A stretch of DNA of 64,000 nt. Origin: an uncultured Acidimicrobiia bacterium. GTDB lineage: Bacteria > Actinomycetota > Acidimicrobiia > Spongiisociales > ZC4RG35. Shown here in pieces: positions 2,446 through 55,072 of the stretch (the first letter of the stretch is position 1; every line of letters starts with the position of its first letter). The stretch is taken from assembly GCA_964195235.1 (NCBI GenBank), contig CAXMOW010000006.1, positions 4,477-68,476 of the forward strand, read 5' to 3'. The position numbers were made by a program, and so were the translations under genes. The notes beneath the pieces are model-generated. The model did not search any database. It saw only the letters and a list, made by a program, of their open reading frames with translations, and had not been told where the DNA came from.

Positions 2446-4047
2446 CTAGCTGCTCCTGGAGAGATCGCCGAGAATCTGGGTGGCAGCAAGTCTGCCCGGC
2501 CCGCCCATCACACACCCGCCGGGATGGGTACCGGAGCCGCATTGGTAGTACCCCGAGATAGGCGTCCGATATTGATTCCAACCCGGGGCTGGTCGGAAGA
2601 GAAACATCTGGGGTGCGAGAAATTCCCCTCCGTAGATGTTGCCTTCGGTCAAACCGGTCCTCCGTTCGATGTCGAGCGGGGTCACGACCTCACGATGCAA
2701 GACGAGATCGCCGAATCCGGGAAAGAACCTCTCGATTGTCGCTTGGACAACGTCCCCAAGGTTCTCTCGTTCCGTGTCCCAATCACTCCCCTTCAACTCA
2801 TATGGGGTGTACTGAACGAAGTTCGACATCACATGTTTGCCGGCAGGCGCCATGTCACGATCAATCGTTGATTGAACACACGAGTCGAGATACGGCTGTT
2901 GTGAGAACCATCCATATTTTGCATCATCGAAGGCCCGTTCCAGGTAGTCGATAGTGGGGCCCATGTTGATGAATCCCCGAAACGGATCCTCTCCGCGATC
3001 GGCCAACGCAGGAAAGTTGGGAAGACCGTCCAGGGCGAAATTCACCTTTGATGAAGTGCCTTGAAAACGCATCCTCTCAATGGAGTCGACTAGCTCAGTT
3101 GGAAGTTCCCTGGGTTCGACAAGCTGCAAGAACGTTCGTCGTGGATCAAGCGAGCTGACAACGACGTCGGCATCGATCTCCCTTCCATCTTTGAGGGCGA
3201 TTCCCGTCGTCTTGCCATTACTCGTGATCACATGGGACACATCCGTCCCTGTCGCAATCTCGGCACCAAACCCGGCAGCGGCCCTGGCAAGCACCTGAGT
3301 GAACCCCCCGGTGCCCCCCTTGTGAAAGGACCATGCTCCCTGATCCCCGTCATGCTCTCCGATGGACATGTAGAGCATGACAAGCCCGGATCCCTGTGAC
3401 CTCGGACCTACCTTCGATCCGATGATTCCGGCACTCGCGATTGCGGCTTTGAGGATCTCGCTTTCGAAATAGTCATCGAGAAAATCGGCCGCACTGCCGG
3501 TGAGAAGACGCATTCCGTTTTGGAGCACTCGCGGAGGCAGGCTCCGAACATGCTGGGCGAGGGCTGCCATCCGCAACAACTCCTCGGGGTCGGTACTTGT
3601 GACGTCGGGAGGGATGGCGTCAAGAAGCGGGCGAACCGCCTGAACCACCATCGCCACATCATGAGAAAACTGCTCAAAGGCGTCGGCGTCGTGTTTGGAA
3701 TGACGTCTGATTTCCGCGATATTCTGTTGTTCGTCCTGACCGAAGAGGAGATAGTCACCGTTCTCCATAGGAGTCAGATTTGATTCCATCAGGAGCGGCA
3801 TAAACCCGTACTTCACCAGTTCGAGCTCCTGGACAATCTGCGGTCGGAGTTGGCTGAGCGCATATGAGAAAGTGGTGAACTGAAAACCCGGGTACAGCTC
3901 CTCGGTGATCGCAGCGCCCCCCACGATTTCGTGTCGCTCGAGGATCAGTGTCCGCAGACCGGCCTTGGCAAGATATGCACCGTTGATCAGACCGTTGTGC
4001 CCACCACCGATGACGACGGCGTCGTATTCGCTTTGCTGTTTGCTCAT
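2446..4047 (-). CDS. Phytoene-dehydrogenase-like FAD-dependent oxidoreductase (COG1233)
   Basis: VIGGGHNGL..AYLAKAG, TPLDIER, GSGTHPGG.V.G.PG; start MSKQQ at 4047 after GAGGA. Confidence 0.85.
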   Translation of the reverse strand: MSKQQSEYDAVVIGGGHNGLINGAYLAKAGLRTLILERHEIVGGAAITEELYPGFQFTTFSYALSQLRPQIVQELELVKYGFMPLLMESNLTPMENGDYLLFGQDEQQNIAEIRRHSKHDADAFEQFSHDVAMVVQAVRPLLDAIPPDVTSTDPEELLRMAALAQHVRSLPPRVLQNGMRLLTGSAADFLDDYFESEILKAAIASAGIIGSKVGPRSQGSGLVMLYMSIGEHDGDQGAWSFHKGGTGGFTQVLARAAAGFGAEIATGTDVSHVITSNGKTTGIALKDGREIDADVVVSSLDPRRTFLQLVEPRELPTELVDSIERMRFQGTSSKVNFALDGLPNFPALADRGEDPFRGFINMGPTIDYLERAFDDAKYGWFSQQPYLDSCVQSTIDRDMAPAGKHVMSNFVQYTPYELKGSDWDTERENLGDVVQATIERFFPGFGDLVLHREVVTPLDIERRTGLTEGNIYGGEFLAPQMFLFRPAPGWNQYRTPISGYYQCGSGTHPGGCVMGGPGRLAATQILGDLSRSS

Positions 4048-44012: not shown

Positions 44013-44414
44013 TTACTCGATGAGTGTTCCGCCTGTGACCTGAAGATGAGGAAGGGCTGTTTCGGGTTGGTCGACCGAAACAGCGAACTCAATGCCATCT
44101 GAAGTGGCTCGCAGAACGTAGATGGCGTCGATGTTCACCCCAGCGTCGGCGAGCGATCGCGTGAGTCGCGCCAACTCACCTGGACGGTGAGGTAACACCG
44201 CCGTGAGCACTGTGTTTTCTACGTTCCTCAGCGCTGCTTCGCTCAACACCCGTCTCGTGGTGGCCGCATCGTCAACAATTAGGCGGACGGTGCCGTCGCC
44301 ATCGTGACCATAGGCTGTGAGAGCTTCGATGTTGACTCCGAAGGCGGCTAGAGCCTCGGTGAGCGAAGCAAGTCGTCCCGGCTGATTCTCCATCGCGACG
44401 ACGAACTCTGTCAT
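44013..44414 (-). CDS. Tandem ACT domain protein
   Basis: ENQPG.LA.L...LA..GVNI repeated as HRPG.LA.L...LA.AGVNI. Confidence 0.88.
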   Translation of the reverse strand: MTEFVVAMENQPGRLASLTEALAAFGVNIEALTAYGHDGDGTVRLIVDDAATTRRVLSEAALRNVENTVLTAVLPHRPGELARLTRSLADAGVNIDAIYVLRATSDGIEFAVSVDQPETALPHLQVTGGTLIE

Positions 44415-44427
44415 TACATGTTCGACT

Positions 44428-45378
44428 CTACGCATCGTTGATGGTCGCGCGCGCAAGAGTTGGGTCCGGGGGCTCCACTCGACCTCGCTCCATAAGGTAG
44501 GCGTGCCAGATGATGCGGGCAGCGATGGCTCGTATCGGCCGCCATGGCTCGCCGAGGATCTCGAGTTCGTCTTGTGTTGGAACCGAGTCCATCCCCAACA
44601 ACTCCTGGGCGCCAACCTGTAGAGCGCGATCTCCAACAGGCCACATATCTACGTGGCGAAGCGCCGACAGCAGGTATGCGTCGGCGGTCCAGAGGCCGAT
44701 TCCCTTCAGTTCAGTCAGGTGGGCCCTGGCCTGGGGAACCGACAGCTTGTCGAGACCATCGATGTCGAAGCTGCCATCGACTACGAGATCAGCAAGACCG
44801 AGGAGGTATTCCGTCTTTTGTCGAGTGACCCCAATTGAGCGCATGCCGTCCGACCCCAGCGCAGAAACTCGTCGGGGGGTCACCCCGCCGGTCGCCTCGT
44901 CGAGACGGCGGTACATTGCAGCGCCCGACTCCAACGACACTTGCTGCTCGAGGATCAGCAACACAAGGACGGGAAACCCTTGGCGTCGATGCCAAAACTT
45001 CGGGACCCCGTGACGATCGATGGCCGCGGCCAACGCCGTGTCCTCGGCGGCCAGCAGGTCACATCCCTCCCGAAACGTCGTTTCGTCGAGACGCTCGACT
45101 CTGGTCAAAACATGCTCGATTTCGATTGGACCCATTGTTCTCGAGTCGGAAAGTGTTGCCTCAGGATTGTCTGACAGAACCCACAGACGGTTCGATCCGA
45201 GAGCCGTTGGGGGCACAGCCACCCTTTTCACCATCCAGAAGTTCGCAAGCTCAGGGTGAGGAAAAACCACGACATCGCCAACCGACGGTTGGCGGGAGCC
45301 GGTTGCAACGATTTCTTCACCTGGAATCAGTGCTGGTCGCATCGAGTCCTCGGCTATGCGGAAGCGCTTCATCGTCAT
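44428..45378 (-). CDS. Fusion of NiSOD maturation protease (SodX, S26-like) and AlkA-type HhH-GPD DNA glycosylase
   Basis: aa 1-94: SM.P.L.PG, GDVVV..HP, VKR, V..DN, DSR..GP; remainder: ILEQQVS, G..RQK..Y, KGIG.WTA..YL, D.WP.GD, W.P.R..AA...W. Confidence 0.85.
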   Translation of the reverse strand: MTMKRFRIAEDSMRPALIPGEEIVATGSRQPSVGDVVVFPHPELANFWMVKRVAVPPTALGSNRLWVLSDNPEATLSDSRTMGPIEIEHVLTRVERLDETTFREGCDLLAAEDTALAAAIDRHGVPKFWHRRQGFPVLVLLILEQQVSLESGAAMYRRLDEATGGVTPRRVSALGSDGMRSIGVTRQKTEYLLGLADLVVDGSFDIDGLDKLSVPQARAHLTELKGIGLWTADAYLLSALRHVDMWPVGDRALQVGAQELLGMDSVPTQDELEILGEPWRPIRAIAARIIWHAYLMERGRVEPPDPTLARATINDA

Positions 45379-45428
45379 GGTGGGGTCATGAGTATGGTCC
45401 CGACACCGACCAGATAAGAAGGAGAACC

Positions 45429-45836
45429 ATGCGTCAGGTAACTATCGCTCACGCCCATTGCGATCTCTATTGCGGGGTCTACGACCCGGCACAGGCAAAG
45501 ATCGAGGCATTGTCCGTGTTGAAGATCGCCCAGAAGTATCAGGAGTCAGATGACGAGGTCTTCAGGGCTCGCGCTCTCGCATTGAAAGAGAAGCAAGCCG
45601 AAGAGGTGAAGCACCATCTGATGGTGCTCTGGGCCGACTTTTTCACGGCAGACCACCGAACCGAGTTTTCCAATCTCGATGGCCTCTTCTGGAGTGCCAT
45701 TCACCAGGCGGGCGAAGCCAAGAAGTCGGCAGATCCCGCCGAAGGTCAAAAATTGCTGGATCTAATAGATGAGATCAGCGATATCTTCTGGCAGACGGAG
45801 AAAGCCAAAGGCATGGGGGTCTACCCACCCGGCTAG
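45429..45836 (+). CDS. sodN: Nickel superoxide dismutase precursor
   Basis: Propeptide MRQVTIAHA then HCDLYCGVYDPAQA.IEA, VKHHL.VLW.D.F, IFW.T; SD AAGGAG. Confidence 0.93.
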   Translation: MRQVTIAHAHCDLYCGVYDPAQAKIEALSVLKIAQKYQESDDEVFRARALALKEKQAEEVKHHLMVLWADFFTADHRTEFSNLDGLFWSAIHQAGEAKKSADPAEGQKLLDLIDEISDIFWQTEKAKGMGVYPPG

Positions 45837-54169: not shown

Positions 54170-55072
54170 TTGGGAGTGATGCACCAGGATGGGGGCGTGG
54201 ATGAGCGAAGAATGCCGATTGAAGGTCCTCTGGATCTAAGGAAAACTCTCCGACCTCTCCACGGGAAATTTGCCGATGACGGATGGTGGCTATCTGCTCG
54301 GACACCAGCCGGACCGGGCTCTATGCGTATCAGCAGAACTCGGGCTGACGTGATCGGAACGGCTTGGGGTGAAGGATCCGAGTGGTTGCTCAACCGGCTC
54401 GGTGGTATTTCGGGACTCGATGACGATCCATCGACGTTCAACCCGGACCACCAATTCATTGCGGAGCTTCATCGTCACAACATGGGTCTTCGCTTCGGAC
54501 GGACCGACCTTGTATTTGCCTCGCTGGTTGTAGCGATCTGTGCCCAGAAGGTCACCGGCAAGGAGGCCGGTCGGGCCATGCGGGGCCTAGGTCGCGCCTT
54601 TTCTCATTCGGCCCCAGGGCCCAACTCTCAGCTCCGACTGCCGCCCGATCCCCAACGCATGGCGGAAGCTCCGTATTGGGTCTACCACGAGCTACACCTG
54701 GAGAAGCGCCGCGCAGACGTTATTCGTCGGGTTGCGGCATCCGCAGAGAAGATTGATGCCCTCAGTGAGGAAACCCCTGCGGTCGCGGAAGGTGCCCTCC
54801 GAACTTTCCCTGGGATCGCCGCCTGGTCCATAGCGGAGACGCTGGCCAGCTCGCATGGCGACCCTGACCAGGTCTCCGTAGGGGACTTTCATCTGAAACA
54901 TATCGTCGTTCATCATCTGACAGGCAAGGACCGTGGGACCGACGAGGAGATGTTGGCGCTCTTGGAGCCGTTTCGCCCAAATCGAGGGAGGGTGGCTCGG
55001 CTACTCCATACCCTCGGTCATGAGCCCAAGTTCGGCCCACGGATGACGCCGCGCGACATCACCCGGATGTAG
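54170..55072 (+). CDS. HhH-GPD DNA glycosylase (actinobacterial 3-methyladenine glycosylase type)
   Basis: TP.GP, QKVTG.EA, PAPGP-like motif, PGI..WS.AE, GD.D.VSVGDFHL, MLALLEP....R.R; start may be GTG 54197. Confidence 0.85.
   Translation: MGVMHQDGGVDERRMPIEGPLDLRKTLRPLHGKFADDGWWLSARTPAGPGSMRISRTRADVIGTAWGEGSEWLLNRLGGISGLDDDPSTFNPDHQFIAELHRHNMGLRFGRTDLVFASLVVAICAQKVTGKEAGRAMRGLGRAFSHSAPGPNSQLRLPPDPQRMAEAPYWVYHELHLEKRRADVIRRVAASAEKIDALSEETPAVAEGALRTFPGIAAWSIAETLASSHGDPDQVSVGDFHLKHIVVHHLTGKDRGTDEEMLALLEPFRPNRGRVARLLHTLGHEPKFGPRMTPRDITRM

Follow-up and report, generated by a model that had tools for sequence, protein, structure and literature searches.

A SodX-type peptidase fused to a Mag/AlkA-type DNA glycosylase beside sodN in a lineage of Acidimicrobiia

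Results

The gene opposite sodN encodes a two-domain protein

We analyzed a stretch of 64,000 nucleotides from an uncultured Acidimicrobiia bacterium (GTDB order Spongiisociales, ZC4RG35; contig CAXMOW010000006.1, positions 4,477 to 68,476), hereafter called the window, in which a gene lies head-to-head with sodN, the gene for nickel superoxide dismutase (NiSOD). This gene encodes, in a single frame, a peptidase domain of the SodX type followed by a DNA glycosylase domain of the Mag/AlkA type. It is a real, conserved and lineage-restricted fusion of two known enzyme families, and what is new is the occurrence of unfused intermediates in relatives together with the single origin of the fusion. 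The features of the locus, in window positions, are the following.

44428..45378, minus strand: fused gene, SodX-type peptidase domain then Mag/AlkA-type glycosylase domain, 316 codons plus stop (44428-44430); from the open reading frame (ORF), Pfam and an AlphaFold2 (AF2) model
45091..45378, minus strand: peptidase domain, residues 1-96, a minimal S26 Ser/Lys peptidase without a membrane anchor
45343-45345, minus strand: Ser12, nucleophile of the peptidase domain
45226-45228, minus strand: Lys51, general base of the peptidase domain
Within the peptidase domain: SDN box at residues 69-71 and DSR box at residues 78-80
44431..45090, minus strand: glycosylase domain, residues 97-316, a short two-lobe helix-hairpin-helix (HhH)-GPD domain of the Mag/AlkA2 kind
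44680-44706, minus strand: HhH motif KGIGLWTAD, residues 225-233 of the glycosylase domain
44629-44631, minus strand: catalytic Asp250 of the glycosylase domain, in WPVGDRALQ
45379..45428, no strand: divergent intergenic region, 50 bp, between the start codons of the fused gene and sodN
45429..45836, plus strand: sodN, 135 codons plus stop; Pfam Sod_Ni, E 1.7e-36

Pfam recognized both halves of the protein above its cut-offs, with Peptidase_S26 (PF10502) at residues 3-54 (33.9 bits, cut-off 22.9) and HhH-GPD (PF00730) at residues 141-281 (40.1 bits, cut-off 26.2). In the AF2 model of the full-length protein (predicted local distance difference test, pLDDT, 93.0; predicted template modelling score, pTM, 0.88) there is no linker at the domain boundary, and strand 91-93 leads directly into helix 99-112. 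A first-pass annotation of this DNA, made from the sequence alone, had described a single uninterrupted ORF of 316 codons, and we found 44428..45378 to be free of internal stops, with all of the motifs that it had named (AEDSMRP, WMVKRV, SDN, SDSRTMGP, ILEQQVS, KGIGLWTAD and WPVGD) present in the translation. The Pfam scan that it had proposed found both of the domains it expected, and its divergent sodN at a distance of 50 bp agrees with the measured gap of 45379-45428. The range that it gave, 44428-45836, does cover both genes, but the fused gene is the minus-strand part only, and the junction that it placed near 45097 is moved in our analysis to residues 96/97 (nt 45090/45091). The gene call for this ORF in a public collection (P0003, 304 aa) begins at Met13 and so omits the catalytic Ser12; the conservation of residues 1-12 among relatives makes it likelier that the protein starts at Met1 or Met3.

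The fused frame is conserved among related genomes

A protein search of a 5.8-billion-protein collection, in which 8000 sequences were scored, gave 1381 matches at E<=0.001. The best 120 of these were all 296-356 aa long; the annotation lists both Pfam domains for 109 of them and HhH-GPD alone for the other 11. Among contigs from one genome per species, 190 stretches encode a relative; we examined the best 80 loci, in which the fused protein is 50-76% identical to that of the window, and the fused frame was present in all 80. These loci carry the NCBI labels Acidimicrobiia (59), Actinomycetota without class (7), Acidobacteriota (8), Actinomycetes (2) and Pseudomonadota (2), while 2 are unlabelled; because a common gene block surrounds all 80, the odd labels are probably errors of binning or naming. 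A third search covered 1.84 billion cluster representatives, and its best 150 matches included one full-length fused representative (P0123) together with fragments. Pfam scanning of the 17 longer ones among these 150 found S26 plus HhH-GPD in P0123 only, and the other matches were mostly glycosylases of ~200-270 aa without an S26 domain. In the ESM Atlas the two domains occur together in two clusters, which have 200 and 57 members.

These data bear on whether the gene could be an assembly or sequencing artefact, that is, two genes joined by a missed stop or frameshift. We regard this as extremely improbable, given the continuous frame in 80 independent assemblies and the contigs from three other studies that bridge the domain junction without an indel (X3 44783-45156, X5 44999-45204 and X6 45051-45258); the apparent internal stops in two genomes (G033 and G134) are the natural stop codons of those genes. 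Two observations could be read in favor of an artefact. One near-complete relative (L095, G276:C1, 2600-3536) has residues 1-196 and 202-306 of the fused protein in different frames, the break falling within the glycosylase domain, and this gene is either a pseudogene or the product of an assembly indel. In addition, an extra G follows 44448 in the run X3 contig (depth 4.85). This position is close to the 3′ end of the fused gene, whose stop comes seven codons further on, and the insertion is either a strain variant or an error.

The first-pass annotation had singled out a stop or frameshift at the junction as the thing to look for, and none is seen in the 80 related loci or in the contigs of the three other studies; the like architecture beside sodN that it had suggested searching for is indeed present in related Acidimicrobiia loci. 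It had also known of no described example, and our full-text literature search, outside which lie subscription journals and supplements, found no paper on a SodX-glycosylase fusion. The fusion is therefore apparently undescribed in the literature, while it is held in public databases under automatic names. Its ranking as the best candidate for a novel system in the window was nevertheless an overstatement, since what we find is a lineage-restricted fusion of two known enzymes that is already in databases.

The N-terminal domain is assigned to SodX

The best NCBIfam family for the N-terminal domain is TIGR02754 (sod_Ni_protease), which aligns to residues 7-94 over profile positions 2-88/89 of 90, at 40.9 bits for the whole protein and 44.8 bits for the domain alone, below the family cut-off of 63.25. 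The SM.P and (V/I)KR boxes hold the Ser/Lys catalytic dyad of S26 enzymes, which also share a (S/G)D..DSR box, and in 32 sequences the residues S12, M13, P15, K51, R52, D70, D78, S79 and G83 are invariant. The S26 boxes are present in all 79 full-length loci, the remaining one (L073) being cut by a contig end. When modelled alone (pLDDT 91.9), the domain had its best fold matches in the type I signal peptidases SpsB (4wvh; E 4.3e-4, TMq 0.76), SipA (4n31) and LepB (1t7d/1b12; TMq 0.74-0.78), whereas the S24 proteins LexA and UmuD matched less well (TMq 0.5-0.6). A sequence search of the PDB with the N-terminal domain gave a chance-level match alone, to HetR at E 0.27. Only 11 residues precede Ser12 in the fused protein, too few to form a transmembrane segment.

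The genome of the window (2.0 Mb, 86% complete) has one sodN and one true signal peptidase I (153 bits), and we found no further S26 gene or stand-alone SodX in these 86%. In a sister genus, a stand-alone orthologue beside sodN (L094) is 56% identical to the domain (tblastn) and reaches 64.0 bits against the TIGR02754 cut-off of 63.25. We assign the domain to SodX because of the synteny with sodN, the lack of an alternative in the genome, the orthology with L094 and the A-x-A site in the presumed substrate described below, and not because of the hidden Markov model score. The SodX-type S26 peptidase that the first-pass annotation had seen at the N-terminus is thus backed by Pfam, by TIGR02754 as the best family, by the conserved dyad and by the sodN synteny.

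An alternative would be that the S26 part is a dead structural appendage that stands in place of the N-terminal domain of AlkA and OGG1, with SodN being matured in some other way. The score under the SodX cut-off would fit this, as would the alignment of AlkA and Ogg proteins to the C-terminal domain, which leaves out their own N-terminal domain and starts at chain residues ~77-100. We consider it very unlikely: neither Ser12 and Lys51 nor the SDN and DSR boxes vary, our search of the genome turned up no second SodX candidate, the domain folds like active signal peptidases, and sodN adjoins the fused gene in all 79 loci that have upstream DNA.

SodN carries a short propeptide and a Ni-hook without proline

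In 79 of the 80 loci, sodN and the fused gene are head-to-head neighbors, and the remaining locus has no upstream DNA. Two features of its product, taken from the translation, concern maturation.

45429-45455, plus strand: SodN propeptide MRQVTIAHA, 9 residues
45456-45482, plus strand: Ni-hook HCDLYCGVY; mature SodN starts at the His (45456)

We compared the N-termini of 77 of the 79 sodN copies, the other two being dropped as their alignment did not start at residue 1. The propeptide ends in A-H-A before His1 in 76 of these and in A-Y-A in the remaining one. S26 enzymes prefer small residues at positions -3 and -1, and the A-x-A before His1, which fits this rule, is the predicted cleavage site; SodN is the presumed substrate of the fused peptidase domain.

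The Ni-hook was compared separately over loci L001-L080, L087-L100 and L117-L146. In the 77 fused-type loci it has no proline at position 5, the sequence being HCDLYCGVY in 56, HCDLFCGVY in 19, HCDLMCGVY in 1 and HCDLYCGIY in 1. Seven further loci of the window's family have Y or F at position 5, and the Ni-hook of a neighboring family is HCDLMCGVY (L100, L124, L136 and L139). In contrast, sodN from six other families of the class (families f3-f7 of the window's order not included) has HCD[LG]PCGVY in 27/27 cases, a pattern that agrees with the NiSOD model-peptide sequence, with Pro at position 5, given in an earlier report (PMC5722923).

The C-terminal domain is a short Mag/AlkA2-type glycosylase

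In the PDB, the closest sequences to the C-terminal domain were the 3-methyladenine glycosidase of B. halodurans (2h56; 29% identity, E 9.6e-23) and D. radiodurans AlkA2 (2yg8; E 5.2e-18), followed by S. pombe Mag1/Mag2 and, more distantly, E. coli AlkA (E 6.4e-6), and the HhH hairpin and the GD catalytic loop aligned across these matches. Structural comparison of model residues ~96-300 by VIA-align gave Z scores of 24.2 for Mag2, 22.8 for Mag1, 21.4 for D. radiodurans AlkA2 and 19.9 for 2h56, at a root-mean-square deviation (rmsd) of 1.6-3.1 over 197-202 aligned residues. The residues G226, G228, W230, T231, P247 and D250 do not vary across 30-32 diverse sequences, and neither do ~55 further positions of the domain besides Asp250 and the HhH motif; the six loci missed by a regular-expression search are PVTDRA or GIGPWTSA variants in which the Asp and the HhH are kept. 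Over 435 sequence pairs the mean pairwise identity is 56.3% for the N-terminal and 62.2% for the C-terminal domain, the latter being higher in 348 of the 435. The intact-looking AlkA-type HhH-GPD glycosylase with a catalytic Asp in the first-pass annotation is borne out by this conservation.

Glycosylase/lyases carry a catalytic lysine at the hairpin position, and it is the presence of Trp230 in the lysine's place that leads us to call the domain monofunctional. An E. coli-type three-domain AlkA was ruled out, as the protein scores 27.6 bits with the model for that enzyme (NF007641; cut-off 229) and the AlkA N-terminal domain has no Pfam match at E<=1 in the fused protein. Since AlkA and OGG1 align only beyond their own N-terminal domains, the S26 domain occupies the place of their extra domain. 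Excision of alkylated purines is the predicted activity of the domain. The genome of the window also encodes Tag (232 bits), an MPG-type glycosylase (183 bits) and another weak HhH-GPD ORF, and the fused domain is therefore not the sole alkylpurine glycosylase of the genome. The weak ORF lies 9 kb from the fusion (54170-55072, plus strand, 300 aa); it has an HhH-GPD score of 22.6 bits, below the cut-off, and an SVGD motif, with no Pfam match at 1e-5 and no NCBIfam match, and may be a second, divergent AlkA-like gene.

It is conceivable that the C-terminal domain no longer excises bases and has become a Mag2-like binder of DNA or abasic sites, or has taken some other non-catalytic role, while the protease works as SodX. 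The top structural matches are the S. pombe Mag2 chains (Z 23.9-24.2, rmsd 1.6-1.8), and the PDB title of Mag2 presents it as a 'glycosylase homolog' that sculpts abasic-site DNA; that the genome has three further candidates for an alkylpurine glycosylase would also be in keeping with such a loss. However, the sequence is closer to 2h56 and AlkA2 than to Mag2, with which it shares only 19-20% identity; Asp250, the HhH motif and the ~55 other positions are invariant, and the stand-alone orthologues in sister genera and neighboring families are ordinary glycosylase genes of ~200-230 aa. We therefore hold the loss of base excision to be unlikely.

The two genes probably moved together before a single fusion

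We surveyed 301 genomes sampled across the class Acidimicrobiia. Within these, the full-length single-frame fusion is limited to the window's family, where it occurs in 22 of 35 other genomes (21 of 34 without the unpublished genome G254), and when the two-frame gene of G276 is included the fusion reaches 8 of the 16 sampled genera. Three sister genera (G074, G186 and G262) have sodN, then a separate SodX of 122-138 aa and then a separate glycosylase gene, with 4 nt common to the SodX stop and the glycosylase start (ATGA, GTGA and GTGA, respectively). In five further genomes (G023, G070, G206, G234 and G258) a short SodX adjoins sodN and the glycosylase lies elsewhere, 600 kb away in G023, while in G086 and G288 the glycosylase has neither sodX nor sodN within ~2.3 kb. 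The match in G174 lies near a contig end, leaving the arrangement undecided, and G242 has a weak match only. Two partial HMMER matches in other families (G062, residues 31-300; G216, residues 25-293) were rejected as fusions: by tblastn the match is limited to the glycosylase part (residues 123/124-277), and sodN is not nearby.

The separate SodX proteins of the operon-type relatives (L087 2643-3011, L090 2104-2520 and L091 3024-3422) are a longer soluble form, encoded beside sodN, with an insert of ~30 residues and no anchor. In L087 the glycosylase gene follows at 3008-3685. With the signal peptidase I model TIGR02227 these SodX proteins score 73-77 bits, above its cut-off of 47, but they do not pass TIGR02754. 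Remnants of the insert (GPGEMV and AGDTIV) are found in some fused proteins.

A maximum-likelihood tree of the glycosylase domain was built from 60 rows, including 40 of the 80 fused loci and leaving out L098 (very long branch), L095 and L102 (short matches). The fused sequences form one clade (support 100/99) that is present in 200/200 bootstrap trees, and the operon type is sister to it (94/83). The sequences with the genes apart fall outside the fused and operon types, the node of the family is supported at 99/95, and the other families then follow in taxonomic order. Two conclusions are firm: the glycosylase gene is native to the lineage and was inherited vertically, and the fusion had a single origin. 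Operon intermediates together with a single fused clade suggest that the genes probably moved together and then fused, and the order that we favor is thus from genes apart, through an overlapping operon, to the fusion.

This history is relevant to the possibility that the join is itself functional, in that the glycosylase domain tethers or gates the protease, so that SodN would be matured at the DNA or upon damage, or else docks SodN. The first-pass annotation had likewise suggested that the fusion might bring NiSOD activation to DNA or place the protease under the control of DNA binding. The two genes came together in two stages and have stayed together, the overlapping operon being sister to the fusion, and in 80 species-level genomes both halves have remained intact at identities as low as 50%; the lack of a linker and the confident inter-domain placement (pTM 0.88) also speak for it. 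On the other hand, 8 of the 16 sampled genera of the family are without the fusion, at least 5 genomes have the genes far apart, and undoing a fused frame needs both a new stop and a new start, so that retention alone is no evidence of a benefit. On balance we find a functional join improbable, although it is the foremost of the alternatives considered here.

Intergenic and downstream context

The intergenic region between the fused gene and sodN is most often 50-51 bp long in 77 loci. In an alignment of 71 of these regions, a box G.GTATGGTC (45390-45399) is conserved at >=90%; it lies ~30 nt upstream of the sodN ATG and, on the opposite strand, ~12 nt from the start of the fused gene. We infer that it contains a -10-like TATGGT directed towards sodN, and the box could serve as a promoter element, either shared by the two genes or overlapping between them, or as the target of a regulator. 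The sodN gene has a strong Shine-Dalgarno sequence, AAGGAG, at 45419-45424, and none is visible before the fused gene in the 50-bp intergenic sequence. A scan for consensus promoters and terminators gave one promoter-like and two terminator-like sites, approximately the level of shuffled sequence, and none of them in the intergenic region. RNA-library contigs (X11) match 45421-45658 and 45684-45725, within sodN only; such contigs cannot show transcription or its absence.

On the other side of the fused gene lies one further gene of the block.

44013..44414, minus strand: ACT-domain gene (Pfam ACT), which starts 13 nt past the stop of the fused gene

The ACT gene is directly downstream of the fusion in 74 of the 80 loci, at 72-94% identity, which exceeds the 50-76% of the fused protein itself. 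It is probably co-transcribed with the fused gene, and we treat it as context and not as part of the mechanism. Since the block of genes for methionyl-tRNA synthetase, SodN, the fusion, the ACT protein, a DUF3048 protein and an amidase is syntenic, the adjacency of the ACT gene may only reflect relatedness. In the operon-type relatives the ACT gene is found ~1-1.5 kb further downstream.

Discussion

We propose that the fused protein is probably a bifunctional chain of two independent enzymes, a SodX-type protease and a DNA glycosylase, although a fair share of doubt attaches to this reading. It would be a cytoplasmic two-domain protein whose N-terminal 96 residues are the lineage's SodX. The Ser12/Lys51 peptidase would remove the propeptide MRQVTIAHA from pro-SodN after Ala-His-Ala, and the amino group and side chain of the freed His1 would then complete the nickel site. 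The C-terminal 220 residues would constitute an ordinary monofunctional Mag/AlkA-type glycosylase that takes out damaged bases with Asp250 as the catalytic residue. As for its history, the glycosylase gene would first have come to lie directly behind sodX with an overlap of 4 nt (ATGA/GTGA), and the overlap would then have been made one frame, once, in the ancestor of about half of the family's genera. The halves would act independently, and the join, in itself mechanistically neutral, would fix a 1:1 co-expression of two low-abundance enzymes opposite a strongly translated sodN. Since sister genera use separate sodX and glycosylase genes, the join is not required for either function; and given that half of the family's genera lack the fusion, and that an overlap is easily fused and hard to undo, a functional link is not required to account for it.

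Several points nevertheless weigh against parts of this proposal. Apart from the score of the peptidase domain, which remains under the SodX cut-off, a tree with the operon type outside is 1.52 log-likelihood units worse than the best one (p-AU 0.187), which tempers the order of events. The best structural neighbor of the glycosylase domain is Mag2, a glycosylase homologue on abasic DNA, and the conserved Asp is therefore no proof of base excision; given the other glycosylases in the genome, the role of the domain may also be narrower or different. Lastly, the absence of a linker and the confident placement of the domains in the model are consistent with a fixed interface between them, and such an interface could be functional.

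The lesions that AlkA-family enzymes remove also include some that arise by oxidation, and a functional link of SodX with a glycosylase is plausible in general terms. In its strongest form, the fusion would be a working unit in which the glycosylase domain holds the SodX active site on DNA or senses DNA damage, a proposal to which we give little credence, less than to a functional join at large. If it were true, NiSOD would be activated at the nucleoid or as base damage occurs, there would be a direct physical link from superoxide defence to base-excision repair, and the operon of the sister genera would represent an earlier, non-covalent complex. Any coupling of the halves would tie the activation of an antioxidant enzyme to DNA repair.

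Under the proposal of two independent enzymes as well, the locus changes how SodX is to be sought. SodX has been treated as a small stand-alone accessory of sodN, and here it exists, in many species-level genomes, only as the head of a DNA-repair enzyme. The fused protein is named automatically either 'S26 family signal peptidase' or 'DNA-3-methyladenine glycosylase II', and this split naming means that surveys of genomes for sodX may miss the fusion; some gene calls, beginning at Met13, moreover lose the catalytic serine. One such survey counted sodN-bearing cyanobacteria without sodX (PMC8346466). The presence of all three states (apart, overlapping operon and fusion) among close relatives also provides a natural series in which added function can be set against a frozen overlap.

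In comparison with known systems, the peptidase half resembles SodX (S. coelicolor SCO5255; TIGR02754) in being a small soluble S26 Ser/Lys peptidase encoded beside sodN. Earlier studies present SodX as the cognate peptidase of SodN, with the genes side by side and a conserved intergenic region (PMC3919588), and as the protease that activates NiSOD by cleavage of the preprotein (PMC8346466). The domain differs from that SodX in forming the first 96 residues of a 316-residue chain instead of being free-standing, and in scoring under the family cut-off. Differences extend to its presumed substrate, since the SodN propeptide in the window has only 9 residues and its Ni-hook has Tyr for the Pro of the NiSOD model peptide (PMC5722923).

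The closest counterparts of the glycosylase half are the short Mag/AlkA2-type enzymes (2H56, 2YG8/2YG9 and Mag1 3S6I), which likewise have the two lobes of the HhH-GPD fold and lack the N-terminal domain of AlkA; their GIG.WTA(D/E) hairpin and catalytic GD loop align with those of the fused protein, with Z of 19.9-22.8 over ~200 residues. Those enzymes stand alone at ~205-235 aa, whereas in the protein of the window a protease precedes the glycosylase. E. coli AlkA (1MPG/1DIZ) and OGG1 share with it the catalytic core and the possession of an extra domain N-terminal to that core, but their N-terminal domain has another fold, and superposition of whole chains gives an rmsd of 11-14 Å.

The operon-type relatives (G074, G186 and G262) have orthologous genes in a like order beside sodN, and their glycosylases are 48-54% identical (tblastn) to the fused C-terminal domain; theirs are, in contrast, two proteins encoded with an ATGA/GTGA overlap, and their SodX is longer (122-138 aa). 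Other N-terminal fusions are also known. Among the best 150 matches to representatives of clusters at 50% identity, a STAS and a GrpB domain precede HhH-GPD in one protein each (P0132 and P0177), and these sequences show that the N-terminus of AlkA-family glycosylases can accept foreign domains. Ada-AlkA fusions occur in actinobacteria. In none of these STAS-, GrpB- or Ada-glycosylase fusions is the partner a protease or related to superoxide dismutase, as it is in the protein described here.

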